NCBI GenBank assembly: GCA_963675515.1
Contig: OY776328.1
Span: 1,440,001 to 1,472,000 of the forward strand
Length of the DNA stretch: 32,000 nt
Source of the DNA: Coprobacillaceae bacterium
Lineage (GTDB): Bacteria; Bacillota_I; Bacilli_A; Erysipelotrichales; Coprobacillaceae
Direction: 5' to 3'
Positions 5,513-32,000 of this stretch are shown here, piece after piece. Below the pieces are notes generated by a model. The model did not search any database and was not told the origin of the DNA. It saw only the letters and a program-made list of their open reading frames with translations. A program made the translations under genes and the position numbers. How positions within the stretch are numbered: position 1 is the stretch's first letter; every line of letters begins with the position of its first letter.

Positions 5513-5517
5513 ATATC

Positions 5518-6653: not shown

Positions 6654-6654
6654 C

Positions 6655-10503: not shown

Positions 10504-10641
10504 GTGCCCGCACATATGGTGAAATTTCCCAAGGACAAGCACATCCGCAAATTAAACGGTGCTGGTTATTGGCGACACATCGTGGTATCCTTTCACTATG
10601 AACTATGGATAAGAAAACCAGGTCAATGGAAGGATAAAAAA

Positions 10642-12036
10642 ATGCCAAAAAAACCGCGATTGAGTTTCGATATGGAAAAAGAGCTGGATCAGCTGACCGC
10701 AGGCCAGCTCAAAGAATTCGTGAAGCTGGTCTGCACTAGTGAGCCGCGAATCAAAGAACTTTTAAGGGACTTTGTGACAGTCAAGCCGGCGCAACTCGTA
10801 CTTGATGATTACCGGCACAAGTACCAGAGCATAATCATCAACGCCCTGGACGATGATGACCGGCTTGACTGGTATCAAGCCGAGACCTTGCATAAGGAGC
10901 TGCTTGACTTCATTTCCTTTGATGTGACGGGCCTGGTGGCCCAGGGAAAATACGACGATGTTTTCGAACTGACGCTGGGTCTGCTTCTCGAGCTCTATGA
11001 ACTAGGTGAGGACTATGATGAACTTGATCCCGGAGTCATCCTCGAGCGCTGCTCGAAGATATGGAAAAGGGCAATCGGGAAGCTGAATCCGCTCCAGAAG
11101 CACAAGGTTCTTGAAAGCATCATGAAGAGTCTGGTTAATTGCCATTACTACAACACCGGGGATTTCCAAGCCGGTCTCAAGGACCTGCTTATCAGCCGTT
11201 TCAAGGATAAAAAGTTCCACGGCAAGCTCAGGGATTTTTTCAAAGCGGAACTTATGGCGGCACAGCAAAAGGATGGCAACCAGGTAAGTCGCCATCAGTT
11301 GCAGGCCCTGGATTACCTGCGCCTGCTTGAAGCGATATCCAAAGATGACAAAGAGATTGGTGATTTCATCGCCAGGTACTGGCATTGTTTCACCATCAGG
11401 GAGCATGTTGCCAATCAGGCTTTAGCCAACAAGGATTATGACAGAGCGGCTTTGATTTTGGAAGCCAACCTGAAAGAAGGCGGCCTGACCAGACGGCAGA
11501 TAGATGATCAGGTAACGGCTTTGAAGGAGATCTATCTAAAAACAGGCAATGTCAAGGACTTGCTTGGTCTTTTGGAGCGAATCGTGGTCGAATACACGCC
11601 CGGTAATCTCGAAGCCTACCGGGAACTCAAGGGTCACTTTACTCCAAGCGAGTGGGAGAAAAAAAGCCGGTCGATCATAGCCCGGCTGCCCAAATTAGCC
11701 AATATTGCCAGGATCTTCAGGGAAGATGAGCGCTACGATGATCTTATGGCCTATGTGATCAAGAAGGACGGTCTAAATGATCTGATCAAATACGAGGCCA
11801 TCCTCGGTCCCCTTTACCCCAACCAGGTCGTGGCCAAGTATGTCCAGGAGATAACCAGGCAGGTGGCTAATGCCAAAAGCCGCAATCAGTACAAGGATCT
11901 TGCCAAGCTGCTTGGACGACTGGGAAAATATGATAAAGGCAAAGCAGAGGCAAGCAAAATCATCGCTTCATGGCAGGAAACATACAGCTTTAAACCGGCT
12001 CTGATGGAAGAAATCGCAAAGGTAAAGATCGACTGA
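10642..12036 (+). CDS. alpha-helical repeat protein (protein C), function unknown
   Basis: ATG at 10642 follows ggaagga with a 7-nt spacer. The product is 464 aa, all-helical by composition, with TPR-like segments (ANQALANKDYDRAALILEANL). I saw no catalytic motif. The track start at 10504 (GTG) has no RBS. Confidence 0.7.
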   Translation: MPKKPRLSFDMEKELDQLTAGQLKEFVKLVCTSEPRIKELLRDFVTVKPAQLVLDDYRHKYQSIIINALDDDDRLDWYQAETLHKELLDFISFDVTGLVAQGKYDDVFELTLGLLLELYELGEDYDELDPGVILERCSKIWKRAIGKLNPLQKHKVLESIMKSLVNCHYYNTGDFQAGLKDLLISRFKDKKFHGKLRDFFKAELMAAQQKDGNQVSRHQLQALDYLRLLEAISKDDKEIGDFIARYWHCFTIREHVANQALANKDYDRAALILEANLKEGGLTRRQIDDQVTALKEIYLKTGNVKDLLGLLERIVVEYTPGNLEAYRELKGHFTPSEWEKKSRSIIARLPKLANIARIFREDERYDDLMAYVIKKDGLNDLIKYEAILGPLYPNQVVAKYVQEITRQVANAKSRNQYKDLAKLLGRLGKYDKGKAEASKIIASWQETYSFKPALMEEIAKVKID

Positions 12037-12233: not shown

Positions 12234-13642
12234 AACGGGTGCAAGATGGTGCGGTCTAAAAAAATGAGGAAGCGAACAACCATTAATTCATCCGAAGTCA
12301 ATGATATCAAACAATCAGCAAACCGATCAACCGGGTTTCAAGGAGGGTAATCAGGGATAATCCAAATCCGGATTGGCTGGTGTAATCAGCCGGGTCGCAA
12401 CACTCAGGTGGCTATACTCCTGAAACATCCCGGCTTTTGATTCAAGCGTAAGTTGGGATGGTGGAAGAACCTGTTCAATCCGGGCGGGGCTCTTTTTCTT
12501 GGCGCTGATGATCGGATGGTGAATAATCGAGAAGCAAGGGAGCGGACAGTGTGATATGAGCTGATTTGGGATTGCAATAACAGCTCATATTTCCATTCTA
12601 AGAGCGGTTTGAGAAAGTTGGGTATATCGATATCCGTATAACGCTAAAGCGGCGTGAAGACCATGTGATGATGATTTGGGTGCTATCAAGCGTTCAGGTA
12701 TTCATGGAACGCCACAAGAACTCCACTTTCACCAAGTGGCATTCAAGGTCTGGTGAAAACAGGATGACGCATTACTGAATTATTCGCGCCGGATGCAAAC
12801 CGAGTATCAGTGCTGGTTTCGCAATTTTGGTTACTGGATTCAAGGTTGATGTCCAGGAAAAGTCTGGGAATTATTCCAATGAGCATTAAATTACTTTCTA
12901 ATTTTGAAACGTTTAGTGAGATCCTTGACATTGGTGGTGGACTCACGTACAATTTATCCCTGTTAGGGCAACCGTCCCGAGTCCCCAATAGGAAATTTGT
13001 AATAATAAATCCAGGTTGTTCTAGCGCCAGTCAGAAAAGCAACTGATAAACATTGCTCAATAGTTTTATGTGTTAGTTGCTTTTCTGGCTGATTCCCCAA
13101 ATCAATGGCCACAAGCAGCTTTTTCTTTGCGGTCATTATCATAACGGATAAAATCAAGGTGAAGTAATTTGGTTTTTAAATTACGCTCCTTGATTTTTTA
13201 ATAGCGTCTCCATAAGGAGAAAACGAGTTGATTGGCGAATTGGCGTTTTTTAAGACGGAATCTGAAAATTCGCAGGAGGCGAACTTTTTAAGAATGTCGT
13301 CATGGTCGATGTTAGTGTGTCTTGATATTTCCAGACTGATGGAAGCGAAGAAAAGGCGATGAAAAATAATGGGACTGGAAACTGGATGGCCCCAGGGGAT
13401 TCCGTAAGCGGCAGTGGCGCTGAAAGCTTTGCGCGAATGTTTTTCTGGCTTGGCTAGCCTATCCGATGATTTCAACTGGCTGGCAATCAAAATAGAAAAG
13501 GGTGCGATTTTCAGCTGAACTTGATTGTGGCCACACACCAGGAAGTTCCTGCCCGCAAATCAAAACGGCGCTATCATGCCTTAAGGCTTAAAGATCCACC
13601 GGTTGATAAATGCTTCAGAATTCCAAATAAGAGGAGATGACA

Positions 13643-14917
13643 ATGACAATCCACATAGTAGACCCAATCGAATCGCTAGACTTTCCCAAAACTGTTACCA
13701 ATGCCCTGGTAAGATTTGGGATCCTCACTGTTGGTGACCTGCTTGGGCATCGCCGGGATGAGATTTGGGAAATCAAGGATTTCGGGCCGCTTGGCAAGGA
13801 AAGCGTCAATTCCTTCCTGCGCCGGATAGTTGAAAAGCAAATTGTCATTGTCGACCTGGGTGATATGAGCAACTATAATGCGCTAATGGAAATGGCTCCA
13901 AGGACTTTCTTTCATATCGACGGGCTTTACTACCGCGATGTATTTGTAAGAAATTTGGGTCTTGGTCCGATTGTCACCAACAGTCTTAAGAATGAAGGAT
14001 ACCTGTGGCTTTCACAGATTATCCATCTGGATCAAAGCGATCTGGCAGGACTGCCAAACATGGGAAAAAAAACAGTCAAGGATGCCTTGGAGGCCATCGG
14101 GCGGATAGTCCTGGTGCTCGATGTCTTGGCCCATGAAAACTTCACCATAACGCCTGAGTTGATCGCGAACAAGTTCCGGCTGGAATTTAATGAAACAATG
14201 GATATCGACCTGGTTGAACACTTTCAGGCGATGATTGGTTTTTATCGGGAGTTGTTTGATGAATTTGGCTTAGATCACGACTACCTAAATGACCTGACAA
14301 TCCGGGAGCGGCTGCGCCAAGAGAGCTATGTAAGATTAAAATACCAGGAGTTCTTGTTTGATTCCATCCGGAATTCCGGTTACGGTCTTGATCTGGATAT
14401 GATCATCGAGAAGACCCCGGAAGTCTTGCGCGGTGTGAACTATATCCGGGAAAATGTCCAAGTCCTGCACAACAGCAAGAAGATAAGGTACCTTGACGGC
14501 CGGACAATGGTTCAAAACGGTCCGTCATTCATCACGGGAGCCAAAAGACATTTGAGTGAATTGCAGTATGCCATCCTGATGAAGTATGTCGAAGGCAGTT
14601 CGATTGAGGCCATTGCCAGTGATCAGGCTCATTCCTGGAAGTGGGCTGTGGAGCATATCGAAGCGCTTTTTAAAAGCATCAAAGACGCTGATCTGAATTT
14701 CGCTGAGGATGTTTACCTGGAGCTTATGCTTAACTACGATATCTCCTATAAGCAGTTCGCCAAGGTTGTGGCCGATCCAAGGATCTACCGCTACCTTGAC
14801 CTGAATTGCCGCTATGGTGCAAACAAATATAAAAATAACCGCTTGCCCCTGGAGAAGATCAGAGAGGACAATGAAATGCCACAATATTACAAAGGACTGT
14901 TCAGTCCGTTTTTATAA
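13643..14917 (+). CDS. family-A protein (copy A1): two RpoA alpha-CTD-like HhH modules plus a sigma-70 region-4-like HTH
   Basis: GAGGAG (13631-13636) sits 6 nt before ATG 13643; the track ATG at 13637 has zero spacing. IESLDFPKTVTNALVRFGILTVGDLLGHRRDEIWEIKDFGPLGKESVNSFL aligns with B. subtilis-type alpha-CTD ([32 protein letters not shown]). The second module is LGLGPIVTNSLKNEGYLWLSQI..LPNMGKKTVKDALEAI. The C-terminal part LSELQYAILMKYVEGSSIEAIAS..HIEALFKSI resembles sigma region 4.2. Confidence 0.8.
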   Translation: MTIHIVDPIESLDFPKTVTNALVRFGILTVGDLLGHRRDEIWEIKDFGPLGKESVNSFLRRIVEKQIVIVDLGDMSNYNALMEMAPRTFFHIDGLYYRDVFVRNLGLGPIVTNSLKNEGYLWLSQIIHLDQSDLAGLPNMGKKTVKDALEAIGRIVLVLDVLAHENFTITPELIANKFRLEFNETMDIDLVEHFQAMIGFYRELFDEFGLDHDYLNDLTIRERLRQESYVRLKYQEFLFDSIRNSGYGLDLDMIIEKTPEVLRGVNYIRENVQVLHNSKKIRYLDGRTMVQNGPSFITGAKRHLSELQYAILMKYVEGSSIEAIASDQAHSWKWAVEHIEALFKSIKDADLNFAEDVYLELMLNYDISYKQFAKVVADPRIYRYLDLNCRYGANKYKNNRLPLEKIREDNEMPQYYKGLFSPFL

Positions 14918-16061: not shown

Positions 16062-16090
16062 TTGAGAATGGAGTGTTAATTATTTATAGT
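16062..16090 (+). promoter_or_regulatory. sigma-A-type promoter duplicated from the vanZ-like gene promoter
   Basis: TTGAGA (16062-16067), 17 nt spacer, TATAGT (16085-16090). It is homologous in sequence and spacing to TTGACA-17-TAAAGT at 25318-25346. Confidence 0.5.
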
Positions 16091-16122
16091 TTATATAACG
16101 AATTTGGGGTGGGGGAAAACTT

Positions 16123-16185
16123 ATGGTTGTTTTGGAAGTTGTAGCTTTTATAATCAGGGATATCGGCTTGTCAATGAGAAACTGA
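16123..16185 (+). pseudogene. 5' remnant of a vanZ-like paralogue (20 codons then stop)
   Basis: The 21-nt string atggttgttttggaagttgta is identical to 25379-25399. The remnant MVVLEVVAFIIRDIGLSMRN* compares with MVVLEVVFVIFKEIALSLFS in the full gene. Confidence 0.7.
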
Positions 16186-16651: not shown

Positions 16652-17135
16652 TTTCCGGGGCCTTTGATTGTCGTTTTTTCGATGATAATCCAAATTGGCC
16701 AGAAGGACGCTATGGTCTAAGGATGAAGTCCAGACAAGGCGGATCTGGATAAGATAGTGGATGAGGATGATTTCGAGGCGGTGGAAGATCAAATGCGGTA
16801 TTCTAGCGTTGACCCCGTTCTTTTCCGGGTGGATATCCCGGACTGGATCTTTGACTGGTAATGCAAATCTGACATGGATATGGATAAGGCAGACCGCGAC
16901 CTAACAATAGCACCCACGACTTAAACCGAATCATCAGGCTGGAGTTGGTCCTGGAGGTAAAATGGGGTGATCTAATTCGGGTATCTTAGATGTGGCGAGT
17001 AAAGTTTAGGCGATTCAGGTGAAGATGTTGGATTATTAGTCATCAAATTTGAAGGTCAGACATAATTAATATTAATGAATAGACGATGGATGTTCTTTAT
17101 TGGTGAGGCAAAATATTTGCTTTTAAAGATCCGTT

Positions 17136-18092
17136 GTGAAGACGCCGATTAAGCGGCGTGAGAGGACAAAGAAATTGGAACTTAAAAAAGAATACGGGCT
17201 TGAGTGTCTACCTTTGCCGATCAGTACAAAGTGTCAATTGGATTATTCGGGAATCGTCAATGTGGGCGACTTCATCAATAGTGATATTGATGAAATCATC
17301 AATTCGGGACTGCATGATGAGCAAGGTGTAGAGTATATTATAAGATGCCGCCAGCAAATGGCTAACGGAGAAATAAAAATACTTGGCCACTATCTTCATC
17401 GGGATTTTGAGGCTGGAGCTGATATGGGAGGCAAGTATTTCCGCCACAAAGATGGTTTGCGCTATCAAGACAAGGCGCTAAAAGAAATAATCGACGACGA
17501 GCATGACTTGAAAGAGTTGAAAGATTCCGGATTTTCATTACTTTCCCAATTGATCGGTTTTAAAACGAGTGATTATAAAGCATCGACCAAGCTGGAAGCA
17601 AAAAACAGAGCAAAAGTGATGAAGATGATCGCCAAAGTGGATCTCGTTCCAGCAACAACGCCCGACCCGGTCGAATCGTCAATGGGGGAAAGACTTTTCT
17701 ACAAGATATGGAACTGTCTTAATGAACTGGTAGGAGTGGAACTGGTAAACCATTACAAAGAGACAATCGATCTTTACGACGATTACATTGCAAACAACGG
17801 AGATGATTATAACCTGCTTGAATGCTATAATGACAAGAAACTGGGAAGTTACCTATTCAAGGAGAGATGCTTCCAGGAAATTATGCAAAGGTATATGTTT
17901 AAACTTCTCAAATCACACCAGTACGGATTGTCATTTGAAGAGATATCAGCCATGGTTCCGGTACTTTTCCAAGATTCGAGTGAATTAGGCGGATACATGA
18001 ATACGCTGATAGATCAACAGTTGATATCGCAGTTGATTCCAGGTCACTTTGTAGCTGGTGCACCGGATTTGATAAGTGGAATTTCTCGCCTG
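17136..18092 (+). pseudogene. family-A gene copy A2, N-terminal 319 codons, interrupted by an IS6-family insertion
   Basis: It aligns with A1, sharing the alpha-CTD-like modules, the YFRHKDGLRYQD versus FFHIDGLYYRD segment, and QYGLSFEEISAMVPVLF versus GYGLDLDMIIEKTPEVL. The frame runs into the IS inverted repeat and stops at 18125. The start is uncertain: GTG 17136, or TTG 17175 which lies 8 nt after gagagga. Confidence 0.8.
18085..18092. repeat. 8-bp target-site duplication (left copy) of the IS6-family element
   Basis: ctcgcctg at 18085-18092 is identical to 24072-24079 and lies immediately outside the IRs. Confidence 0.85.
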
Positions 18093-18130
18093 GGTAGTGT
18101 CAAATTCGTTATGGAAAAACAGTGATTTTT

Positions 18131-18391
18131 TCATAATAGAGTTTCGTGTTCGTTTTGTCGGTAATACCTAAGCGCTTCTTCCATGAGGATGTTCCACTTG
18201 TTTGGCATGTTATGAGTTTTCTTCAAACAATCCAATTCAACTGGTGGCTTGTATCCCAGGGAGGTGTGATTTCTTAGGAAATTGAAATATGTTGTGAACA
18301 GACACATGAAATCATTTGCGCCATCCAATGAGTTGAAGCCATTTTTGATCGCGTAGGTTTCTCCAAATGTTCTATTCAAACGCTCTATTAT
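18131..18391 (-). pseudogene. IS6-family transposase, C-terminal 86 codons (separated by the nested insertion)
   Basis: Reads IIERLNRTFGETY...FNFLRNHTSLGYKPPVE, which contains the catalytic E region. It joins in frame to 22693..23883 once the nested IS and one TTAT copy are removed. Confidence 0.8.
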
Positions 18392-18419
18392 CCGTAGTTC
18401 CCGGGTAGAGTTTCTAACC
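18392..18419. repeat. left terminal inverted repeat of the IS1634-like element
   Basis: See the element entry. The inner end carries the TTCTAACC motif. That motif is repeated in the internal palindrome gtggttagaagatattctaaccac (18517-18540), just downstream of an extended -10 (tgtggtataat). Confidence 0.75.
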
Positions 18420-18555
18420 ACTCTGCCTTTGCATTAGCCTGAATACGCGGAAACCCTTATATTTACTTGATTTTTTGACTTACGAACACTTCCTTTTTAT
18501 GCCAAATGTGGTATAATGTGGTTAGAAGATATTCTAACCACGAAGGGAGAAAACC

Positions 18556-19207
18556 ATGTTTATCGCTTATGATATCAAAAACGGAATTGAATATGGCAAG
18601 GTTTGCACCTCGATCCGTGAGGGAAAGAAAGTCAAGAAAACGTATACCAATCTAGGACGCGTTCTTGATAAAGAACGCGGAATCTTTCAGAACCGATCAC
18701 TTGGTGTGTTCACCTATTCCGTTGAAAACGGGTATGGCAAATCACCTGTGGATTTTGTACCCGATTCAAACGGAGACAGAGGAAAGATGAAACTTATCCT
18801 GGACTTCGGAGACAGCTTCTTCATCGATGAATATCTAAAACAAACAGGCTTGGACAAAGTAGTGGATGAGATCGGATACGGAAATCCGGATACCCTTAAA
18901 GCGATGCTTTCCTACTACATATTATGCAGCATGGCTAACTGCAACGCTATCGACTGGTTCGAAGGCAACTATGCGAGGATCCTGTATCCAAAGGCAAACC
19001 TTACCAGCCAGCGGATCAGTGATTTTCTTACCGCTATCGGGGATGAATATTCAGAGCGTGAATTCTTCAAGGCGTATTTGGAATTCCTGTTCAGTAAAGA
19101 CAACACGATCAAGGAAACCGGGATACTGATCGACAGTACCGGATTACCTAACGATATCCACTTTCCTCTGACTGCTATCAGTAACCATAACGGTCAGATA
19201 AGCAATG
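18556..19207 (+). CDS. IS1634-family DDE transposase, exon 1 (upstream of the group II intron)
   Basis: RBS gaagggag. The N-terminus MFIAYDIKNGIEYGKVCTSIREGKKVKKTYTNLGRV is typical of IS1634 transposases. The first catalytic D is in GILIDSTG. The frame is broken exactly where GTGCG begins at 19208. Confidence 0.8.
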
Positions 19208-21801
19208 GTGCGAAACGTTTCCCTATAAATGCCTAGGCATGAAATGGGAGGATTTTCCAATTGGAAAATCACAACTGAATATTCAACACTTGGAATGATG
19301 GCTGTCATGTTAGCCTGAAACAAGTAGTCTGATACTCCTACACGCATGAGGTTATAACAGTAAAATCATGTGTGAAGCTAGGTGAAGTCGGCTGAACGAT
19401 ACCTAAGTGATATTTCATATGGTAAAGGATAGGCCGGGACGCTATAAATTATCTATGGTGAGAATGTCCGTGTAAGGACTGACGAAACTGCGAATGTACG
19501 GGTCTAGAATATCGTGCTATTGAAAGATAGTATGTTGCGTGCGCAACGATGAATATCGAAAAGTAAGAGTCATTGCTATGAAATTCGAGATACTCAACGA
19601 TGAGGGTATAATTCATCAGGCTCATAGTAGTAACCTAAGGATAAATGTAAAGCTAGAATATTTGGAACGTTGTAAGCGAGAAACGTCTATCAAACGACTG
19701 TTATCGGGACGGTAACTATAAGTGGAAACGAAATGTTTTTATTCTCGTGAAAGTAGGGGCACAGTACCGATGAAGCCACGAAAAATGGTGGAGGGATAGC
19801 CCCAAGTCTGGTTCTTTAAAAATCAGTTACAGTTAAATGAAGCTCACAGGGTCTGGTAAGATGATGGGAAACAATTGTTCTAAATGAAAGGAATAATCCA
19901 TCGGTGAGCACGGAATTACGAAACAACGAATATTACAGTATGCAGGAAACTTTTGACTGGTTGTATCAAATGAGTTTAAACAATGATACTTACGGGATAG
20001 ATCTTTATGATCTGGTCATATCCAGGAATAATATACTTCTCGCCTATCGAAACATCAAAAGCAATACCGGAAGCCACACAAAAGGCACTGACGGCCTTAC
20101 TATTGATGATTACAAGATAGAAAATGTTGAGAGATTTATTCAGGATATTAGACTATCGCTATTGGACTATAAGCCAAAGACGGTAAGAAGAGTAGAAATA
20201 CCCAAACCTAATGGGAAATTACGACCATTGGGAATACCGACGATGCATGACAGACTGATTCAACAGATGTTCAAACAGATACTTGAACCAATCTGCGAAG
20301 CGAAGTTTCATAAGTATTCATACGGTTTTAGAGCCAATCGCTCAACCCATAATGCTTTGTCAAGATGTTGCCATATCGCCAATATGACGCACAATCACTA
20401 TGTTGTTGATTTGGATATCGAATCGTTCTTTGACAATGTCAATCATACCAAGTTAATCAAACAACTTTGGAATATCGGCATCAAGGACAATCAGGTACTG
20501 ACGATTATAAGTAAAATGCTGAAAGCTCCCATAAAAGGAGTAGGTGTCCCACACTGTGGGACACCACAGGGCAGGAGTGCTTTCGCCATTACTTTCAAAC
20601 GTAGTGTTGAACGATCTGGACTGGTGGATAAGCAACCAATGGGAAACATTCAATGCGAATTACAAATATCCCTCAAATAAGTATAGTGCACTCAAGAAAA
20701 CCAATCTAAAAGAAATGTATGCGGTAAGGTATGCCGATGACGCGCGGATTTACACTTGCAGTTATAAAAATGCGGTAAGGATATATCATGCGGTCAAGGA
20801 ATATCTGAAGAAAGAACTTAAACTTAATGTTTCACCTGAAAAGTCAAAGATTACCAATCTAAGGAAACGTAGGTCGGACTATTTGGGGTTTGAAATGAAG
20901 CTGGTACCAAAGCGCAAGAAGTACGTTGCGAATACCTTTGTATCAGCGAAAAGTAAAAGAAAAATCAAAGCGGAAATAAGGAAAAGAGTTAAAGAGATAC
21001 AGCGTCAAACAATTTCCAAGAATATCCACAATTATAATTCATATATACTTGGGATAAGAAATTATTTTGAAGCTGCAACACATGTAAATATAGATTTTAG
21101 AAATGTTTACCATCAGACGCTCAAGACCTTATACAACCGATTGAAACCAATAGCCAAATATGAAGTACCCAGGAGTCCCCCACCGTTGTATAGGAAGTTG
21201 TTTAAGAATAACTATCGCACATTCACAATTGGAGCTATTTCATTGTTTCCGCTAGTCGATACGCAGTGGAAATTAAAAATGAACTTCAATCAGAACATAT
21301 GCAACTATACCCAAGAGGGGCGCAAATTAGTTTATAAACGATTAGAAAACAATGTAACCTCAGTTATGAAGAGGTTGTTGGAACTGCCAATTGAAGATGG
21401 AAGCGTGGAGTACCGGGATAACACAATCTCAAAGTATTCAATGCAAAAAGGGCGTTGTGGAATCACCCAATTGTTTCTAACGGCCGAGGAAATACACTGT
21501 CATCACATTGTTCCCATTGCAGATGGTGGAACCGATAATTTTGATAACCTAATCATTATTCACAAAGAAGTACATAAACTAATACACGGTAATAATCAGG
21601 AAACTGATAAAACGCTATTGAAAAAGTTCAATCTAAACCAAACACAGCTTAAAAAGATGAACATGTTGCGTAAGAGATGTAATTTAACTGAAATTAATTA
21701 AAAGAAGAATTAGATGGAACGCCGTGTGCGGTGAAAGTCGCATGCACGGTGTGGAGCGGGGGAAAAGATGGAGATAACATCAAAATCTTACCTATCGTTA
21801 T
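19208..21801 (+). mobile_element. bacterial group II intron (about 2.6 kb) with RT/maturase/HNH ORF in domain IV
   Basis: The 5' end is GTGCG (19208-19212). A domain V-like 34-mer gccgtgtgcggtgaaagtcgcatgcacggt lies around 21719-21752. The 3' end reads ..cgttat (AY) at 21801. Removing it joins the two transposase exons in frame (652+854 nt = 501 codons plus a stop codon) to give ..GQISNEVRLIYVTQQDTGMPIYF. Confidence 0.85.
19904..21701 (+). pseudogene. group II intron-encoded RT/maturase/HNH endonuclease, disrupted by a +1 frameshift near 20573
   Basis: RT motifs include RPLGIPTMHDRLIQQ and YADD (RYADDARIY). The C-terminal HNH part is HHIVPIADGGTDNFDNLIIIHKEVHKLIH. The conserved GTPQGGVLSPLLSN block is split: frame 1 reads GTPQGRSAF and frame 2 reads AGVLSPLLSN, with an extra nt in ggc-a-gga. 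Confidence 0.8.
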
Positions 21802-22655
21802 AGGTAAGGCTGATCTATGTGACCCAGCAGGATACCGGAATGCCGATATACTTCCGGTATTGTCCAGGCAACGTCATCGATACGCCTACATTGGTCAGAA
21901 CCATAGCTGAGTTGAAGGAAAGTGGCGTCAACACTAAATTTGCCATTCTTGATGCCGGATACTATTCGGATGGTAATCTCCTGCACTTATATGAGAACAA
22001 GATATCATTCGTCACAAGACTCAAGGAAAACCTGAAGCTGTACAAGCAGCTGGTAAATAACCATCTCGATGGTATCCAGGATAAAGAGAATTTCGTAAGC
22101 TATAACACCCGTTATGCCTATATCAAACGGGTTGAGTGCGAACTTGTTGAAGGGTATACCGGATATGCCTACATCGGTCTTGACCTTGATCGGAAATCGA
22201 GCGAAAGCCATAAGTTGTTCCAGAAGGCAAAAGATCAAAAACTCAGTGATGAAGACGTTTACGAGAAGATGAAAAACAAAGGAATATTCATTTTGGTCTC
22301 ATCGAGGCGCATAGCGAAGGATAAAATTTTACCGCTTTACTATACCCGGCAACAGGTAGAACAGATTTTCGACATCAGCAAGAACTACGCTGATCTATTG
22401 CCGTTGCGGGTACAAAATGAGGATACCTTCAGAGGTCATCTATTATTGACGTTCATCGCAACTGTGTTTTGTAAGATGGTTCAGGACAAGCTGAAGGGGA
22501 CCAAAATGAATCCTCAATCCTTGTTCCTGAACTTGCGAAACCAAAAATGCAAAGTATATGATAATGCCGTAATCACCCAAGAAGCTTTCAAGAAGGCGAA
22601 TGATTGCTACAAAACATTCGGTATTGAATGCCCGGTCAGAATACCGAGAACCTGA
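21802..22655 (+). CDS. IS1634-family DDE transposase, exon 2
   Basis: Continues as (E)VRLIYVTQQDTGMPIYFRYCPGNVIDTPTL...AILDAGYYSDGN, which holds the second catalytic D. It ends 6 nt before the right IR. Confidence 0.8.
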
Positions 22656-22660
22656 TTTGT

Positions 22661-22688
22661 GGTTAGAAAAGCCACCCGGGAACTAAGG
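22661..22688. repeat. right terminal inverted repeat of the IS1634-like element
   Basis: It is the reverse complement of 18392-18419 with 4 mismatches. Confidence 0.75.
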
Positions 22689-22692
22689 TTAT

Positions 22693-23883
22693 TTGTTTGG
22701 CAGGGCGATGTTCTTTTGATACAGGATCATCATTCGTAAGTCCAATTACTTGAGTCACTTTAAAAAATACTCTTTTGATTTGAAAATACTGTTGAGCGGC
22801 TTTATATATCGGATTTCCGTCAACAACGATCTCAAAGTCAGTCGGTAACTTTTTGAATTTTCTCATGACTGAATAAAAGGCATTTATAGCCGCAAAGGTA
22901 TCTCTTTTCATGAAAATTCGATACGAAGTTATTATTTTTTTCCTAACATCGCACATGAAAAATACATAGGCTTTTTTTCCTAAAACTTTGACGTATGTTT
23001 CGTCTCCGCAATGATACGAGTTCAAATCGTGCTTGTAGTTATCCATCCACGGAAATAGGAGATGGCTGGCTGCCTGAGCGTAGTTAGCTATTGTTTGATG
23101 GGATATTTTGATATCGTGAATCTCGTATAAAACCAAAGCGGTTTTTCTAAGAGACAGGCCATAATTAACGTAATACGTCAACGCTAGGCCTAAAACATGC
23201 TTAGAATTGTGGATTCTGGAGAGATCAACTTTTGATGGTGCTATTTTCAGCTGGATGCTTTCAAGTTTTTCGATTGAAGCATCGAAGACGCGGGTTATGT
23301 AGTGAAGCGAGAATTTAGAAGGATTTACCTTGTATTTCTTTTTATCTTCTTTTGTTAGTTTCTTCAACTCACTCTTATAGTGAGAACATCTAGAGTTTTG
23401 ACATTTATAGACATCAAAACCATCACGTGATTTGATCAACGTCAACTTGCGGCCGCAGTGAGGACACTTGCGGATCAATTGTTGCGAATAACTCTTATTA
23501 AGTGAGAAAGTCGTATCACAAACTTTGCACTTAACTTGGGATTTCTTGATTCCGTTGTTGAAAGTCAGGTATTCATGAGTGGCGCCGCAATGTGGGCAAA
23601 CAGTATCTTCAGATGGATAGTCTTTGCCTTCATGTCTAAACACCGGTTTCAAAGGTCGTTTATGTTTGGATTCATACTCATCCCTGGCCTGTTGAAATGG
23701 GATGGGGATTAATTGCGGTTCAATAACAGGAAGCGGATGCATTTTGAAACGACGATATGGTTCACTCTTACTTGAATCCGTACCATCACTGGGAAGATGC
23801 TTTAGCAGGAAACACTCAAATTTGTACAAAAATCTACGAATGATATTTAAAAAATTGATTATTAATGATATAATTTTGACCAT
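22693..23883 (-). pseudogene. IS6-family transposase, N-terminal 397 codons (two zinc-ribbon motifs plus first part of the DDE domain)
   Basis: CPHCG..CKVCD and CPHCG..CQNSRC motifs are present. HCGDETYVKVLGKKAYVF is the IS6 hallmark DETY(V/I)K, and VVDGNPIY holds the second D. The track ORF (22663..23883) ends inside the IR of the inserted element. Confidence 0.8.
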
Positions 23884-24071
23884 GGTAACAGTCCTCCTTA
23901 TTGTGGTTTAGACACTTACAATTATGAGGCTGTTACCTTTTTTTGTAAACAAAATGGTCAAATTATAGGGTGAAATCCGGGGGAATTCACCTAAATATAT
24001 AAAAAACCAAGGTAGAATGCGGTTTTCCAGTTAATTATGGTTGTAAATAACTAACTGGTTTTGACACTACC

Positions 24072-24079
24072 CTCGCCTG
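24072..24079. repeat. 8-bp target-site duplication (right copy) of the IS6-family element
   Basis: ctcgcctg, identical to 18085-18092. Confidence 0.85.
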
Positions 24080-24439
24080 TTGAACGAATCGGAAATGGAA
24101 GCGTTCATGCTCCGTCTTGAAAATATTGAAGTTAGAGACATTGCCGCCAAGTTGAATGTGAGCAAGTCACGCATCCACTACCTGCTAAGAAGGAGTTTCA
24201 ATAAAATCAAAGACAGTCAACCTGTTTTGATGATAGATGCATACATTGATATATTAAATAGATATGAGTTGTCTAAAGAAAAGTGGGAAGAAATCCTTGG
24301 TGGCGAACTTAATTATAACTACATGGAGTTGCGGCTTAAGTATGGAGGTTTTTATTACAGGTACGGTTATCCGATAAGTGAAATATCCCGCGCTTATTGG
24401 ATTCCAGAACCAATCAGGCAACATTTAATGAATTCTTAA
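24080..24439 (+). pseudogene. family-A gene copy A2, C-terminal 119 codons (sigma region-4-like HTH part)
   Basis: The first codon follows the TSD in the same frame as 17136..18092. LNESEMEAFMLRLENIEVRDIAAKLNVSKSRIHYLLRRSFNKIKD aligns with A1 LSELQYAILMKYVEGSSIEAIAS...ALFKSIKD. The downstream segment LNYNYMELRLKYGG aligns with RIYRYLDLNCRYGA. Confidence 0.8.
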
Positions 24440-24529
24440 GTGATTTCTAGTTGAAAATAATATAAAAGCAAACCAACTCACACTCATGTAATTATGCTGT
24501 TTAGAAAAAGAGGCTGGTTATTGGCATCC

Positions 24530-24739
24530 TTATAGGCTCGTCCCATCCGTTCGCTCATCAATGACAATTATCGTGATTTCATCATGAATGAAATTGCCGA
24601 TGTCACTGCTGAAGATCTTTAGGTGATTACCCCGCCACTGCTCCAGAATCATTGCTTTGAAGAAGCGGGGATCTTGGAGCTGGTGGTTGATAGGAAAATT
24701 GTCGAATCGAAAGAAGGAGGCGATGGTTTCAATATCCCT
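24530..24739 (-). pseudogene. startless ORF remnant with a Walker-B-like hhhhDE segment
   Basis: Minus frame reads RDIETIASFFRFDNFPINHQLQDPRFFKAMILEQWRGNHLKIFSSDIGNFIHDEITIIVIDERTDGTSL*. There is no start or RBS. Its protein-like composition suggests a fragment of a larger gene. Confidence 0.3.
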
Positions 24740-24920: not shown

Positions 24921-24944
24921 GGAGGCAGCGATATCGCTGCCTCC
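24921..24944. repeat. perfect 24-nt palindrome (hairpin), terminator-like on the minus strand
   Basis: ggaggcagcgat/atcgctgcctcc is flanked by A5 on both sides on the plus strand, which gives a T5 run after the stem on the minus strand. Confidence 0.5.
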
Positions 24945-25317: not shown

Positions 25318-25346
25318 TTGACAAGACGACCTGTTTTCTTTAAAGT
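25318..25346 (+). promoter_or_regulatory. sigma-A-type promoter of the VanZ-like gene
   Basis: TTGACA (25318-25323), 17 nt spacer, TAAAGT (25341-25346), about 30 nt upstream of the RBS agggggaa. Confidence 0.55.
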
Positions 25347-25378
25347 TTACTTAACAAAATTGGTTAGGGGGAAACCTG

Positions 25379-25966
25379 ATGGTTGTTTTGGAAGTTGTAT
25401 TTGTGATATTCAAGGAAATCGCTTTATCGTTATTTAGTTATTTGAGCCAGTCGATTATCTTTGCGATCCTGATGGTGGTGGCGACTGTCTATTTTTATGA
25501 GCATGGTTTCAAGTCTGGTATCACCAAGGTATGGGGAATGGTTAAATCCAGCAGCCACTACCGTTATCTTGCTGCGTTCTATCTTTACATCTATTTGATG
25601 GCATTGCAGACAATCATCTCCAGGGAGGCTGAGTGGTGTGGCTGGTGCTATATCATGAATGACTGGTGGTTTTACTATTCCAACGGCGAGCTCAACTGCA
25701 ACTGGTTGTTGAACTATCTGCTTTTCGTTCCTTATGGCTATCTGCTGCTGGGGACGTTCGAGAAACTGGTGAAACAAGCAAGCTTGAAGAAGGTGATTAA
25801 GGTCAGCCTGAAATTTTCGTTTTTGACTTCTTTGGGGATTGAGGTCATACAATTGTTGTTTAGTGTTGGAACATTCCAATTGGCGGATCTGTGTTACAAC
25901 ACCTTGGGCGGGCTGAGCGGAGCAGTCCTGTACTGGTTTCTAAAAAGCCGAAAGAGCCAAGCCTAA
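25379..25966 (+). CDS. VanZ-like family membrane protein
   Basis: 195 aa with several TM helices. NYLLFVPYGYLL and SLGIEVIQLLFSVGTFQLADLCYNTLGGLSGAVLYW are typical VanZ-family segments. Confidence 0.8.
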   Translation: MVVLEVVFVIFKEIALSLFSYLSQSIIFAILMVVATVYFYEHGFKSGITKVWGMVKSSSHYRYLAAFYLYIYLMALQTIISREAEWCGWCYIMNDWWFYYSNGELNCNWLLNYLLFVPYGYLLLGTFEKLVKQASLKKVIKVSLKFSFLTSLGIEVIQLLFSVGTFQLADLCYNTLGGLSGAVLYWFLKSRKSQA

Positions 25967-26606: not shown

Positions 26607-28055
26607 ATGTATCATCGCAGTGCCCAGGGCTGGTTGAAGCATCTGGATTTCATGGTCATTGACATGCTTTGTCTGCATTTGGCATTTCTACTTGCCTATA
26701 TCATCAGACAAGGTCTCAGTGATCCTTATGTAGATTTTCGTTATCGAAATATGATTATTGTCATCACTTTGATCGAGTTCATGGTATTGGTGTTCTTCAA
26801 TTCCTTCAAGAATGTCTTGAAGAGGGGGTATTATCAGGAATTCTTAGCCACGGTAAGACATGCATTCCTGGTAATTGTATTTACGACCTTCTATCTCTTT
26901 GCGGTTCAGGATGGACTGGCTTATTCAAGAATCATGATTGGGGTAATGGCAATCTTGTTTACACTGACAAGCTACCTATGTCGGGTAGGATGGAAATATT
27001 ATCTGCAAAATAATGTCATCAAGGACAAGAAACGATCATTGTTGATAGTGACCAATGACTTGATAGCAAAAAGAGTAGTTGATAACATTTTAGGTACTAA
27101 TCATGAAAAGTATTATCTTGCCGGGTTGGCTATTCTAAACAAGGATTTGATAAATCAGGAAATCAACGGGGTTCCGGTAGTCGCTTCAAGTGCAACTGTT
27201 ACGGAATATGTATGTAGGGAGTGGGTTGACGAGGTTATCATTAACCTGCAAAACAACGTTCCTTTCCCGGATAATTTGATTAATGACTTTGTGGTGATGG
27301 GGATTACTGTCCATCTTGAACTGGTTAAATCAGCAAGAATCGAAGGAAAAAAACAGTTTATTGAACGGATTGGAAACTATTCGGTGCTCACTACCAGCAT
27401 TAACACAGCCAAAACATACGAACTTGCATTGAAAAGACTAGTTGATATCGGAGCAGGTTTAGTTGGTTGCCTGATCACTGGTATTCTATATGTTATTATG
27501 GGACCAATGATTTACTTTCAATCACCTGGACCAGTATTGTTTTCCCAAGAACGGGTTGGAAAAAACGGGAAGAAGTTTAAAATATATAAGTTTCGATCAA
27601 TGTACCTTGATGCGGAACAACGCAAACAAGAATTGATGGAGCAAAACCGGGTCAAGGATGGCATGATGTTTAAACTTGACTTCGACCCAAGAATCATCGG
27701 TTCAAAACAAATCAACGGAAAAACAAAAAAAGGCATCGGCAACTACATCCGCGACTTAAGCCTTGATGAATTCCCACAATTCTATAATATCCTTAAGGGG
27801 GAAATGAGCCTGATAGGGACTAGACCACCAACTCTCGATGAGTGGAAAAAATATGACCTTCATCATCGTGCCAGACTAGCAACCAAACCTGGGTTAACTG
27901 GAATGTGGCAAGTTAGTGGGCGATCAAATATAACTGATTTCGAGGAAGTTGTGCGACTTGATAAACAATATATTACTAACTGGACATTGGGATTGGATGT
28001 TAGGATATTAATAAAAACTATACAAGTAGTATTAACAAAAGATGGGTCAATGTGA
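26607..28055 (+). CDS. polyprenyl-phosphate glycosyl-1-phosphate transferase (WbaP/CpsE/EpsE-type priming enzyme)
   Basis: 482 aa with N-terminal TM helices, a central domain, and a C-terminal bacterial sugar transferase domain (PGPVLFSQERVGKNGKKFKIYKFRSM, SLDEFPQFYNILKGEMSLIGTRPP, KPGLTGMWQVSGRS). Confidence 0.9.
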   Translation: MYHRSAQGWLKHLDFMVIDMLCLHLAFLLAYIIRQGLSDPYVDFRYRNMIIVITLIEFMVLVFFNSFKNVLKRGYYQEFLATVRHAFLVIVFTTFYLFAVQDGLAYSRIMIGVMAILFTLTSYLCRVGWKYYLQNNVIKDKKRSLLIVTNDLIAKRVVDNILGTNHEKYYLAGLAILNKDLINQEINGVPVVASSATVTEYVCREWVDEVIINLQNNVPFPDNLINDFVVMGITVHLELVKSARIEGKKQFIERIGNYSVLTTSINTAKTYELALKRLVDIGAGLVGCLITGILYVIMGPMIYFQSPGPVLFSQERVGKNGKKFKIYKFRSMYLDAEQRKQELMEQNRVKDGMMFKLDFDPRIIGSKQINGKTKKGIGNYIRDLSLDEFPQFYNILKGEMSLIGTRPPTLDEWKKYDLHHRARLATKPGLTGMWQVSGRSNITDFEEVVRLDKQYITNWTLGLDVRILIKTIQVVLTKDGSM

Positions 28056-28599
28056 AAATTTGATCTGAAATTTTTTATATTTATAAATTTCTTGCAGTAT
28101 TGCAGATAACGCATTTTTTGCAATGATATATAAAAATATGTTGTTATACACTAATAGGTAGAAATAATAATATTTTGAGGCCATTTTTATTGCATCCATA
28201 AATGTCAATTTTGAAGCTTATAATAGTATAGTTTCCGACATTATATGATTATTTGAGTTAGTAAATATTTGGTGATAAATTTGATTTTATATATTCTTGA
28301 TGAGTTTTTATTCAAATTGTAATTTCTGTATTATTGTTTTGAATGACCATAAAAAAACAGGAAGCGAATATTTTGGATTGCGAAAAGTTGATATATGTTC
28401 TGAAATGCTGAAATTTCTCGGATTTATAGCGAGCAGATTTTGACATACCAGTATTATAATTTACAACCTGAGATATGCGGTCATTATAAATTATTCTTGG
28501 AGTATTAATATAATTTTCTAAGTACCAAAATAATGGCTTGTTTCAATACTGTGTACTGTAGAAATAGCGGTTTTTCCACTTGTAGGAGGAAAAAGTGAA

Positions 28600-29070
28600 A
28601 TGGATAAAAAGAAATTAAAAGTATGTTTTGCTGCATCGTCGGGAGGGCATTTTGAACAATTGATGATGTTGCGCCCTTTAATGGAAGAGTATGACAGTTT
28701 TATATTAACTGAAAAAACAATATATGATATTGATACCGATAATATAAAAACTCATCATGTCATCCAGATAAATAGAAAAGAGAAATTGTTTCCATTGAAA
28801 TTTATTATTTGTTTCGTTGAGTCTTTTGTTATTTTTATTAAGGAAAAACCGGACATAATTATTTCAACAGGCGTTTTGGCATGTGTTCCAATGTGTTTGA
28901 TAATTAAAGCTTTTGGAAAAAAGTTAATATACATTGAATCATTTGCTAAGGTTTCAACTCCAACTGTTAGCGGTAAATTTCTATACAAACATGCAGACCA
29001 ATTTTATGTTCAGTGGGAGAGTATGAAGGGAGTATATCCTGAAGCAATCTATAGAGGGGGGATATACTAG
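28600..29070 (+). CDS. Alg14-like membrane subunit of a split glycosyltransferase (Cps14F/PssD type)
   Basis: 156 aa. The N-terminus KVCFAASSGGHFEQLMML and the ending ..ESFAKVSTPTVSGK are typical of this type. An Alg13-like partner follows directly. Confidence 0.8.
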   Translation: MDKKKLKVCFAASSGGHFEQLMMLRPLMEEYDSFILTEKTIYDIDTDNIKTHHVIQINRKEKLFPLKFIICFVESFVIFIKEKPDIIISTGVLACVPMCLIIKAFGKKLIYIESFAKVSTPTVSGKFLYKHADQFYVQWESMKGVYPEAIYRGGIY

Positions 29071-29093
29071 ATAATATGAAAGGATAGCGTGCA

Positions 29094-29573
29094 ATGATAT
29101 TTGTAATAGTTGGGTCTCAAAAGTTTCAGTTTAATAGACTTTTGAAAAAAATAGACGAGCTTATAGATAATAATATTATTAAAGATGAAGTTTTTGCTCA
29201 AGTTGGAGCAAGTGATTATGAACCAGTAAACTACAAGTTCAAAAATTATTTAAACCAGGTCGAATTCAAAAAGTTGCTCAGTAATAGTAATCTCGTTATA
29301 ACCCATGGGGGAACAGGAGCGATAGTGGGAGCATTGCGGGAAAATTGTAAAGTTTTAGCGATCCCACGTTTAGCAAAATTTGGTGAACATGTTGATAATC
29401 ATCAGAGACAAATACTTTCTGAATTTGAGTCTATGGGTTACATAGAGGTTTGCGAAGATTTGGCCAGCCTTGAAGGTTCATATAATAGGATACTAAATAA
29501 AGACTATAGAGAATATAAATCTAATACAGAGAATATAATGAAAAATATTAATGAGTTCTTGAAAAATCAGTGA
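29094..29573 (+). CDS. Alg13-like catalytic subunit (Glyco_tran_28_C; Cps14G/PssE type)
   Basis: 159 aa with MIFVIVGSQKFQFNRLL and ITHGGTGAIVGAL...HQRQ. Confidence 0.8.
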   Translation: MIFVIVGSQKFQFNRLLKKIDELIDNNIIKDEVFAQVGASDYEPVNYKFKNYLNQVEFKKLLSNSNLVITHGGTGAIVGALRENCKVLAIPRLAKFGEHVDNHQRQILSEFESMGYIEVCEDLASLEGSYNRILNKDYREYKSNTENIMKNINEFLKNQ

Positions 29574-29589
29574 TCGTGGAGTATACAAG

Positions 29590-30669
29590 ATGGAAAAAGT
29601 TAAAGTATTGATGATTGGCAATAGTCTTTCGGTAAGAGGCGGAATAACCAGCGTTATTGATCAATTATTGTCATTTGATTGGGAAAAAAATAATGTAAAA
29701 GTGAGATTTGTTCCTACTTATATTGATAGTGGAAAAGCAATTAAATCTTTATTTTATTTGATTGCCTACTTTAAAATAATTTTTATTTTTTTATTTGATT
29801 GCCCTGATATTTTGCATATTCATATGTCATATAAGGGTAGCTTTTATCGAAAGTTGTATATTCAGAATCTGGCGAAAGTGTTTAAAGTTCCCAATATTAT
29901 CCATCTTCACGGTTCTGAGTTTGAAAAATGGTATTATGAAAGTAGTGAAGAGACACAAATCAAAATAAGAAAACTTTTAATTAATTCTGATTCTTTTATA
30001 GTTTTAGGTAATAAATGGAATGACATCATAAAAAGAATAGAACCAAATACAAATACCTTAGTTGTTAGCAATGCGGTCAAAATACCATCAGAAACAGCAA
30101 AGTGGAATTTTGTTTCATTTCAAGTTGTATTTCTAGGTGTTCTTATCAAAAGAAAGGGCGTAGCTGATTTACTGCAGGCGATCAGTATTATTAAAAAAAA
30201 TAACAATGTTGGAAATTTGAGATTTGTCATAGCGGGAACTGGAGAAGATGAATTAGAATTAAAGGAATTGGCTGTTTCCTTGGACATCAGTGAATGCGTT
30301 GATTTTATTGGATGGATAGACGGTATCGAAAAAAAGGAATTATTAAAAGATAGCCAATTGATGGTTTTGCCTTCTTATAATGAAGGTTTGCCAATTGCGA
30401 TTCTTGAAGCACTTAGCTATGGCTTGCCTATTATTGCATCGGATGTTGGGGATATTTCTTCAGCAGTTATTGACGGTAAAAACGGTTTTTTAATTGAGGC
30501 GGGTAATTATGAAAAATTAGCAAGTAGTATAGTGAAGATTGCTATGGATCAGACAATGTTTGAAAAACAAAGCATTGTGTCTAGAAAATTGGCCACTAGT
30601 AATTTTTCTGATGACAAATATCAAGATTTATTAGGATTGTGTTACCATAAATTTGGAGGGATAAATTAA
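29590..30669 (+). CDS. GT4-family glycosyltransferase
   Basis: 359 aa with the C-terminal retaining-GT4 signature LPSYNEGLPIAILEALSYGLPIIASDVG (E-x7-E). Confidence 0.85.
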   Translation: MEKVKVLMIGNSLSVRGGITSVIDQLLSFDWEKNNVKVRFVPTYIDSGKAIKSLFYLIAYFKIIFIFLFDCPDILHIHMSYKGSFYRKLYIQNLAKVFKVPNIIHLHGSEFEKWYYESSEETQIKIRKLLINSDSFIVLGNKWNDIIKRIEPNTNTLVVSNAVKIPSETAKWNFVSFQVVFLGVLIKRKGVADLLQAISIIKKNNNVGNLRFVIAGTGEDELELKELAVSLDISECVDFIGWIDGIEKKELLKDSQLMVLPSYNEGLPIAILEALSYGLPIIASDVGDISSAVIDGKNGFLIEAGNYEKLASSIVKIAMDQTMFEKQSIVSRKLATSNFSDDKYQDLLGLCYHKFGGIN

Positions 30670-31826: not shown

Positions 31827-31860
31827 GATTGTTTATACAGTTTGTTTGAGCGGGTAAATT

Positions 31861-32000
31861 ATGATAAGTTGTGTAGAAAAGAACAAATGTTGCGGATGTA
31901 CAGCATGTGAAAGTATTTGTCCTAGGAATTGTATAAAAATGATTCCAGATGATGAGGGATTCTCATACCCGTCAGTAGATGAAACACTTTGTATTGAGTG
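31861..32000 (+). CDS. 4Fe-4S cluster protein, N-terminal part (FrhB/F420-dehydrogenase-beta-like partner of pyruvyl transferases), truncated by the window end
   Basis: MISCVEKNKCCGCTACESICPRNCIKMIPDDEGFSYP carries a CxxCxxCxxxCP ferredoxin motif. The frame is still open at nt 32000. Confidence 0.6.
   Translation, partial: MISCVEKNKCCGCTACESICPRNCIKMIPDDEGFSYPSVDETLCIE

Follow-up and report, generated by a model that had tools for sequence, protein, structure and literature searches.

What has happened to a gene whose two parts lie kilobases apart on the chromosome, and what has become of the mobile elements between them? The question is raised by a 32,000-nt stretch of the genome of a Coprobacillaceae bacterium (GenBank assembly GCA_963675515.1, contig OY776328.1, positions 1,440,001 to 1,472,000 of the forward strand), hereafter called the window, in which all coordinates below are counted. 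Positions 17136-24439 of the window very probably hold a chromosomal regulator gene, here named A2, which is split by three mobile elements, each nested in the previous one: an insertion sequence (IS) of the IS6 family, within it an IS of the IS1634 family and, innermost, a group II intron (Table 1). The intron adds a second question, namely how its intron-encoded protein (IEP), a reverse transcriptase (RT)/maturase, is made from a coding region that is divided over two reading frames; it is this conserved and selected frame shift which makes the region worth a further look.

Deletion of 18093-24079, that is of the IS6-family element together with one copy of its 8-bp target site duplication (TSD), leaves a single frame of 438 amino acids (aa) in which ...ISGISRL is joined to LNESEMEAF..., and the restored protein aligns with its paralogue A1, encoded at 13637-14917, with 23% identity (E 7e-24) and no gap across the junction. 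The junction is likewise gapless against P0254, an orthologue of A2 whose gene in locus L007 is uninterrupted and stands in the same gene order as in the window, and which at 49% identity is the one real A2 homologue among 5.8 billion proteins. The terminal inverted repeat (IR) of the IS6-family element, GGTAGTGTCAAA, is found twice in the window against 0.13 matches expected (two or more in 0 of 100 shuffles) and recurs at both ends of L088, L089 and L090, of which L088, a related IS6-family copy at 73% identity, has an 8-bp TSD of its own, TTAAATTG, found twice. The IR starts with GG and resembles the IR of IS26, GGCACTGTTGCAAA. Freed of its insert, the element aligns over 1-1678 with L088, L089 and L090 (72.7% identity) and with L092 (88%). 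Its transposase gene can be restored in the same way as A2, as deletion of 18392-22692 yields a minus-strand frame of 483 aa, which reads ...EHRPAKQIIERLNRTF... and is identical at 483 of 483 residues to P0241, a protein encoded elsewhere on the same 2,881,239-bp contig. The restored transposase matches Pfam DDE_Tnp_IS240 with 34 bits (cutoff 27); its best NCBIfam match is the IS6 model NF033587, covered from 2 to 201 of its 202 positions with 82.8 bits, under the cutoff of 125. CxxC motifs and weak Zn-ribbon matches occupy residues 86-179, with about 85 residues ahead of them.

The element that interrupts this transposase gene ends in CCGTAGTT and CCTTAGTT and sits after codon 397, within residues 222-447 that are matched by catalytic-domain profiles. 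Once the intron is taken out, its 1,703 bp can be aligned over their full length with L001 (93.5% identity), L007 (93%) and L002-L006 (75%), and in all seven of these related copies the intron site is empty and gapless. More than 100 homologues match the joined transposase of 501 aa over its full length, P0001 from an Erysipelotrichaceae metagenome-assembled genome being the best at 98% identity, and the transposase scores 126.1 bits against NCBIfam NF033559 (cutoff 100) and 63.9 bits against Pfam DDE_Tnp_1. Three of its residues, S125, T320 and R500, are private when compared with eight close homologues, and 7-8 residues differ from two intact, intron-less copies of the same genome (P0246 and P0249), so that the IS1634-family element of the window is not a fresh copy of either. 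The surrounding IS6-like transposase, in contrast, has an identical counterpart in this genome. The reverse nesting is observed elsewhere: in L092 (positions 1-2122; Logan SRR11702756) the IS6-like element aligned above ends at 1657 and adjoins part of an IS1634-like transposase gene (83% identity over aa 416-493), a junction which implies that in another sample an IS6-like element has inserted within an IS1634-like element.

Removal of the innermost layer, 19208-21801, restores the 501-aa frame with an exon junction of AGCAATG followed by AGGTAAGG, in longer form ...GATAAGCAATG joined to AGGTAAGGCTG.... Two Rfam models agree with the assignment as a group II intron: RF02004 (group-II-D1D4-5, domains I-IV) matches 19270-19448 over the full model with 106.7 bits (gathering threshold 34.5), and RF00029 recognizes the 3' domains, with domain V at about 21719-21752. 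Over its whole length the intron can be aligned with homologous introns of L008-L010 and L093-L096 (73-75% identity) and of L173 (94%); for L175 and L176 (~94%) the alignment begins at intron base 1 and stops at about base 2,540-2,560, where the contigs run out. In the 27 distinct exon contexts compared, the column of the first exon-binding site (EBS1) changes together with the 5' exon of the respective intron, and the EBS2 column, found by a covariation scan, pairs in 20 of these 27. TTATCT at 19449-19454 was also considered as EBS2, as it pairs with exon positions -12 to -7, but the motif is conserved whatever the exon and was rejected. Matches to solved IEPs are ambiguous with respect to the class of the intron (IIA, IIB or bacterial). 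With the frame-repaired IEP as query, the nearest relatives in genomes and metagenomes are 71% identical in protein and none lies inside an IS1634 element, and in plasmid and phage collections, where no close copy was found, the best full-length match (66.6%) is to introns of Bacillus cereus-group plasmids; the close intron copies L173-L176 were found through look-ups of 90% protein clusters.

A preliminary description of this DNA had proposed the same nesting of A2, IS6-family element, IS1634-family element and group II intron, and the repeats, excisions and restored frames which it gave for the three layers are borne out, with uninterrupted relatives of each layer as corroboration. The IRs of the middle element, given as 28 bp long at 18392 and 22688, lie at these positions but are imperfect, with 24 of 28 bases matching. 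Uninterrupted copies are encoded on the same contig in the form of the IS6-like P0241 and the intron-less IS1634-like P0246 and P0249.

What the insertions have done to their hosts differs from layer to layer. As the IS6-family element entered A2 after codon 319, just before the helix-turn-helix (HTH) region, the C-terminal HTH domain is cut off. The IS1634-family element in turn lies inside the catalytic domain of the IS6-family transposase, so that the outer IS is no longer able to make its own transposase; the remaining 406-aa product, truncated within the region of the catalytic-domain profiles, is not a complete enzyme. The intron, on the other hand, stands in the sense strand of the IS1634-family transposase gene, where splicing decides whether the transposase is made. 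Its sense orientation, the intact ribozyme domains, the complete pairing of EBS1 and an IEP under purifying selection indicate that splicing could restore the IS1634 mRNA; we infer that the intron may still splice and need not inactivate the transposase. For RmInt1 in ISRm2011-2 splicing is known to restore the transposase mRNA (PMC4238363). The mutual inactivation by successive insertions that was put forward at first can be upheld for A2 and the IS6-like transposase and not clearly for the intron layer. That A2 was intact fairly recently had been deduced from the perfect 8-bp TSD, which is weak evidence; the 483/483 identity of the IS6-like transposase and the fact that both halves of A2 are still open speak for it.

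The most parsimonious history begins with an intact A2, into which first the IS6-family element would have inserted, then the IS1634-family element into the latter and finally the intron, which would have arrived by reverse splicing into the site and subsequent target-primed reverse transcription, be it as retrohoming or retrotransposition. This chronology, proposed already from the nesting itself, is not the sole possible order, since composites could be mobilized in trans by the intact transposases that this genome encodes. The contig indeed encodes at least three intact IS6-like transposases (P0121, P0241 and P0244), at least two intact IS1634-like ones (P0246 and P0249) and further copies of the intron protein halves; P0242, P0248, P0253, P0289 and P0295, truncated products which are identical to ORFs (open reading frames) of the window, are all located on this one 2,881,239-bp contig. 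A pre-formed composite, either IS1634 with the intron or IS6 with both, might have moved as a unit with transposase supplied in trans from the intact copies or, for IS1634, from spliced mRNA, in which case the same structure would have another history and depth would not be the order of arrival. We consider such a course of events unlikely: the intact same-contig transposases, the terminal IRs of both elements, which are all intact, and the private substitutions that set the IS1634 copy of the window apart from the same-genome copies are compatible with it, but a second copy of either composite was present in none of the fetched loci, the seven related IS1634 copies are all without intron, and a 6-kb IS6 or a 4.3-kb IS1634 composite would be a less likely substrate than the plain elements. 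That the nest is an assembly artefact which joins reads of separate repeats is scarcely credible. Chimeric joins usually arise from repeats, and each of the three elements does have several copies in the genome, yet each layer is surrounded by its own short direct repeat, which chimeric joins are not expected to create, the removals restore the frames exactly, and the outer restoration equals an independently encoded protein at every residue. Insertion one into the other, in the order given above, therefore remains our preferred reading of the nest, against which several observations nevertheless have to be set. The IS1634 copy is flanked by the 4-bp repeat TTAT, whereas 5 bp are usual for the family and four independent related insertions have the 5-bp AT-rich TSDs TTAAT, ATTAG, CTTAA and ATAAT; the explanation is either a duplication of less than the usual length or the loss of one base, an A, from the right junction, and the restored IS6 sequence is the same either way. 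The EBS2 pairing extends over only 4 bp, so the intron site may be ectopic and not a preferred home, and in the fetched loci no closely related intron lies within another IS1634 copy. Uninterrupted A2 is known only from another organism, through the orthologue P0254 in L007, and the copies elsewhere in the source genome are known as proteins.

With respect to the second question, the two-frame organization of the IEP ORF was absent from the preliminary description. If A20573, the extra base between the two halves, is skipped, the RT motif GTPQGGVLSPLLSN reappears and can be aligned to PDB 6ar1, and the repaired protein scores 348 bits against TIGR04416 (cutoff 300), as compared with 211 and 119 bits for the halves alone. 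The 90% clusters of both halves consist only of split products, from the source genome, a second genome of 2.57 Mb and several metagenome assemblies, and the N halves in the cluster end in the same out-of-frame tail. Four intron copies, L173-L176, are 92-96% identical to the intron of the window, and the extra A is present in 5/5 copies of this lineage (the window and L173-L176, four samples) in the context CAR GGC A GGA. Both IEP halves are under strong purifying selection. In all five copies both are open with no stop codon, the ratio of nonsynonymous to synonymous substitution (dN/dS) is 0.06-0.13 for the N half in frame 0 and 0.11-0.19 for the C half in the +1 frame at a dS of up to 0.28, and variable sites fall mostly on third codon positions (12/5/47 over the first, second and third position in the N half, 27/26/96 in the C half). 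In the 35-codon overlap after the shift the +1 frame is clean and constrained, and the 0 frame gathers stop codons.

The split is confined to this lineage: of 164 loci with IEP homologues, the four of L173-L176 have it, 158 are unsplit and the other two run into a contig end. The lineage copies reside in the IS1634 transposase gene, in an IS66-family transposase gene and in two different GH1 genes; EBS1 and EBS2 differ among the copies and match the respective 5' exon in the four copies where the exon is present, L174 being truncated at both ends. Different sites, matching EBS and selection together imply that the lineage remained mobile, and still required its protein, once the shift had arisen. 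With the copy in L175 (Logan SRR23823845; 2656-3633 and 3605 onward), which is located in the sense strand of the IS66-family transposase gene and derives from the same sample as the uninterrupted A2 orthologue in L007, the lineage has entered transposase genes of two IS families. Two further proteins of the same contig depart from the IEP sequence: P0299 starts with MCGESRMHGVERG, which is translated intron domain V, fused to the IEP residues KLKTNFNQ..., and P0292 leaves the IEP sequence right after GTPQGG to continue into LCGYRHNPPCG.... Both look like rearranged intron copies; the break in P0292 could stem from an intron or some other element that has entered the ORF.

How the two halves are translated can be judged from the surroundings of the extra A. 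It is probable, if by no great degree, that the intron belongs to a mobile lineage whose RT/maturase would be made only via a programmed +1 ribosomal frameshift inside the RT domain, at GGC-A-GGA (20570-20576). The hairpin just upstream (Table 1) would help the +1 shift at this site and so yield the full-length IEP, a predicted trans-frame product of ~70 kDa with the peptide GVGVPHCGTPQGGVLSPLLSNVVLNDLDWWISNQWETFNANYK across the shift, within ...CGTPQGGVLSPLL.... The hairpin folds with -19.2 kcal/mol in 4/4 copies folded, and L176 bears the same stem; at the equivalent site of 149 unshifted homologues the mean is -5.8 and the minimum -15.9, none being as strong as the hairpin of the lineage. 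A duplex or hairpin upstream at such a position has been shown to stimulate +1 shifting on 70S ribosomes and AGG-mediated +1 shifting in yeast (PMC6321510). Some weight on the other side comes from codon usage, as AGG occurs 7.3 times per 1000 codons in the host genes of the window, with 9 in the IEP, and is not rare; a Ty1-type 'hungry' AGG codon was rejected on these grounds. The restriction of the split to one lineage, moreover, is a statement about the matches listed, and an unshifted relative of >90% identity may have escaped.

The main rival to frameshifting is an internal start, by which the IEP would exist as two polypeptides and the C half would be initiated at GTG 20544 or further downstream. 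The +1 frame opens at this GTG directly after a TAG, the Shine-Dalgarno (SD)-like AAAGGAG at 20534-20540 precedes it, the arrangement is kept in 5/5 copies, and selection on both halves fits two polypeptides equally well as frameshifting. Against this, GTG 20544 forms part of the hairpin, in its 5' arm, and is separated from the SD-like sequence by no more than 3 nt; the split falls in the middle of a conserved RT motif, between GTPQG and GVLSPLL, which the +1 shift restores exactly; and the tail of frame 0 is unconserved and ends differently among the copies. Taken together, these features render separate translation of the halves rather improbable. Less probable still, and by a good deal, is a disabling mutation or sequencing error that would leave the intron dead and the nest a stack of mutually inactivated elements. 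Two overlapping ORFs in place of one and the split products given by gene callers invite this interpretation, and frameshifted IEP genes are usually taken as decay; a pseudogene was also the first reading here, rejected on account of the split-only 90% clusters and the dN/dS values. Several observations argue against a dead IEP. The five copies, all with the extra A, derive from projects independent of one another (one NCBI/ENA genome, one ENA metagenome assembly, two Logan assemblies); the A is not the extension of a homopolymer in GGC-A-GGA; both halves have remained stop-free under selection at the divergence reached; and copies at different sites have co-adapted EBS. A programmed +1 frameshift, as a candidate mechanism, is the reading we retain for the IEP.

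Table 1. Features of the nested locus, in coordinates of the window
Feature	Position	Strand	Remarks
A2, 5' part	17136..18092	+	codons 1-319 from GTG 17136; from ORF list, excision and translation
Left TSD of IS6-family element, CTCGCCTG	18085..18092	.	8 bp; abuts IR on the outside
IS6-family element, long-transposase type	18093..24071	-	1,678 bp of own sequence (18093-18391 and 22693-24071) with 4,301-bp insert
IS6-family terminal IR, GGTAGTGTCAAA	18093..18104, partner 24060..24071	+, partner -	12/12 at both ends
IS6-family transposase gene, 3' part	18131..18391	-	codons 398-483 and stop
TTAT direct repeat flanking IS1634-family element	18388..18391 and 22689..22692	.	4 bp
IS1634-family element	18392..22688	+	1,703 bp of own sequence, interrupted by intron
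IS1634-family IRs	18392-18421 and 22659-22688		26/30 positions match; core pattern twice vs 0.00 expected
IS1634-family transposase gene, exon 1	18556..19207	+	ends after first base of codon 218; 226-aa truncated product = P0248
Group II intron	19208..21801	+	2,594 nt, GTGCG...AT; sense to IS1634 transposase gene
EBS2 loop, ATATCG	19509..19514	+	only TATC pairs, with exon -11 to -8
EBS1, CATTGCT	19571..19577	+	pairs 7/7 with exon -7 to -1 (AGCAATG)
IEP, N half	19904..20572	+	frame 0; RT blocks 0-4, ends ...GTPQG; Pfam RVT_1, TIGR04416
Perfect 10-bp hairpin, GGTGTCCCAC-ACT-GTGGGACACC	20543..20565	+	ends 1 nt before E-site codon (CAG)
Candidate +1 shift site, CAG GGC A GGA	20567..20576	+	extra A at 20573; homologues CAA GGC GGA
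IEP, C half	20574..21701	+	+1 frame; RT blocks 5-7 with YADD, X/thumb, HNH; Pfam RVT_1, HNH
Intron domains V and VI	21717..21801	+	RF00029, 61.1 bits vs threshold 40, model 1-77; ends at 3' splice site
IS1634-family transposase gene, exon 2	21802..22655	+	joined product 501 aa
IS6-family transposase gene, 5' part	22693..23883	-	codons 1-397; Zn-ribbon motifs, most of DDE domain; 406-aa truncated product = P0242
Right TSD of IS6-family element, CTCGCCTG	24072..24079	.	8 bp; abuts IR on the outside
A2, 3' part	24080..24439	+	codons 320-438; LuxR/GerE / sigma-70 region 4-like HTH

The gene at the bottom of the nest is itself unusual in its distribution. The C-terminus of the A2 family is a LuxR/GerE-type HTH: P0254 bears PF00196 (GerE), A2 residues 320-363 give weak Sigma70_r4 matches in a profile search, and local structural matches of the family C-terminus are to GerE, NarL and VpsT. 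A fold search with the model of the A2 orthologue (mean predicted local distance difference test, pLDDT, 77.7) returned no significant full-length match in PDB, with local matches to the LuxR/GerE-type HTH. A1 shows repeats like those of the C-terminal domain of the RNA polymerase alpha subunit. A search with A2 against 1.84 billion cluster representatives gave 36 matches, and by such sequence searches the A1/A2 protein family is very rare. The public gene call for A2 opens at TTG 17175 rather than at GTG 17136, P0253 corresponding to 17175-18125. The locus is flanked by an operon for the utilisation of N-acetylmuramic acid (MurNAc) and a low-GC (guanine and cytosine) polysaccharide cluster, and in two organisms, represented by the window and by L007 (2-3461), paralogues of the A1/A2 type stand in tandem upstream of a polysaccharide gene cluster. 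The 510-aa ORF at 10504-12036 was considered as a third paralogue and rejected, as it is unrelated to A2.

In the remainder of the window, GC content is 27-33% in 28001-32000, where glycosyltransferase and pyruvyl-transferase genes are located, versus 44-54% in the MurNAc operon (1-7500), so the polysaccharide cluster looks compositionally foreign. About 6 kb between 7540 and 13600, including the 510-aa ORF and ORFs of 173 aa and 189 aa, gave no protein-family matches. A direct repeat of 86 bp, 79% identical, at 16080-16165 and 25336-25421 has its copies just upstream of unrelated genes, a 151-aa ORF at 16196 and a VanZ-like gene at 25379, and may represent a regulatory region common to both. 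A perfect 24-bp palindrome, GGAGGCAGCGAT followed by ATCGCTGCCTCC, at 24921-24944, about 480 bp downstream of A2 and with A runs on either side, looks like a terminator. A promoter and terminator scan of 17000-24600 gave counts not above those of shuffled controls, and the window holds no tRNA or Rfam match outside the intron.

The three elements are un-named members of known families. Long IS6-family elements such as ISTet2, ISHahy6 and ISHco2 have been grouped as clade VIII (Harmer & Hall 2019) or clade i (Varani et al. 2021), although it has been considered that they perhaps stand outside the IS6/IS26 family, none having been studied experimentally (PMC6807381, PMC7986276; the reservation by Harmer & Hall, PMC6807381). 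The outer element resembles them in its length of 1,678 bp versus 1,713-1,761 bp, in the 8-bp TSD, the short IRs starting with GG and the occurrence in Firmicutes, and in a transposase in the range of ~450-480 aa whose IS6-type DDE domain is preceded by a Zn-finger region and an additional N-terminal stretch (PMC6807381, PMC7986276); its 483 aa differ from the 453-454 aa of ISTet2-type elements. By these features, taken for the clade from published descriptions, it would belong with ISTet2, ISHahy6 and ISHco2. IS1634-family elements measure 1.5-2.0 kb, have ends of the form C-----YT and generate AT-rich target duplications of 5-6 bp (De Palmenaer et al. 2008, PMC2266710). The middle element conforms with this in its 1,703 bp, in CCGTAGTT, which fits C-----YT, in its large DDE transposase and in the 5-bp AT-rich TSDs of its relatives, and departs from it in the 4-bp repeat that flanks the window copy.

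As an arrangement, the nest is ordinary in so far as IS within IS, as in IS15, and introns in IS transposase genes, as with RmInt1 and E.c.I1, are already well known. IS15, an IS6-family element within another, shares with the present locus that an IS insertion disrupts an IS transposase gene (PMC7986276), and differs in that here three levels are formed by three unrelated kinds of element. RmInt1 in ISRm2011-2 of Sinorhizobium meliloti and E.c.I1, I3, I4 and I9 of E. coli are located, as here, in the sense strand of an IS transposase gene, and IS elements as intron targets are a recognised strategy (PMC4238363, PMC3522654). RmInt1, however, lacks an endonuclease domain, whereas the present IEP has HNH, and ISRm2011-2 is its regular home, whereas here five copies occupy four targets, one of them in IS1634, where the EBS2 match is imperfect. 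The locus nevertheless offers a clean, fully resolvable case of mobile elements entering one another, in a chromosome of probably Erysipelotrichaceae-like type. The nest disables a rare regulator beside a polysaccharide cluster and brings further members to the IS1634 family and to the long-transposase branch of IS6, on which little work exists.

No account of recoding in the ORF of a group II intron came up in a literature search, and the putative frameshift signal has its parallels outside these introns. Ty1 and Ty3 shift to the +1 frame at CUU_AGG_C and GCG_AGU_U, respectively (PMC5009743). As in the Ty elements, a retroelement polymerase is encoded downstream of the +1 shift, and as in Ty1 the 0-frame codon is AGG and the +1 codon a Gly codon. 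The P-site tRNA-Gly, however, is not able to re-pair in the +1 frame (GGC to GCA), which speaks against a Ty1-type model and brings the site closer to Ty3. In E. coli prfB (SD duplex, 3 nt, CUU_UGA_C) the duplex ends just 5' of the E-site codon, as does the hairpin here. In contrast to Ty, where the shift is placed between gag and pol, the candidate site lies within the RT domain. If the frameshift is real, it would be the first recoding signal described for a group II intron ORF and among very few bacterial +1 sites, a compact new signal to study; it would provide a translational throttle of the intron on its own mobility, and 'frameshifted' intron ORFs annotated as pseudogenes may then merit re-examination. 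Group II introns would thereby join IS elements, Ty elements and retroviruses in the use of recoding to set the level of the mobility enzyme.

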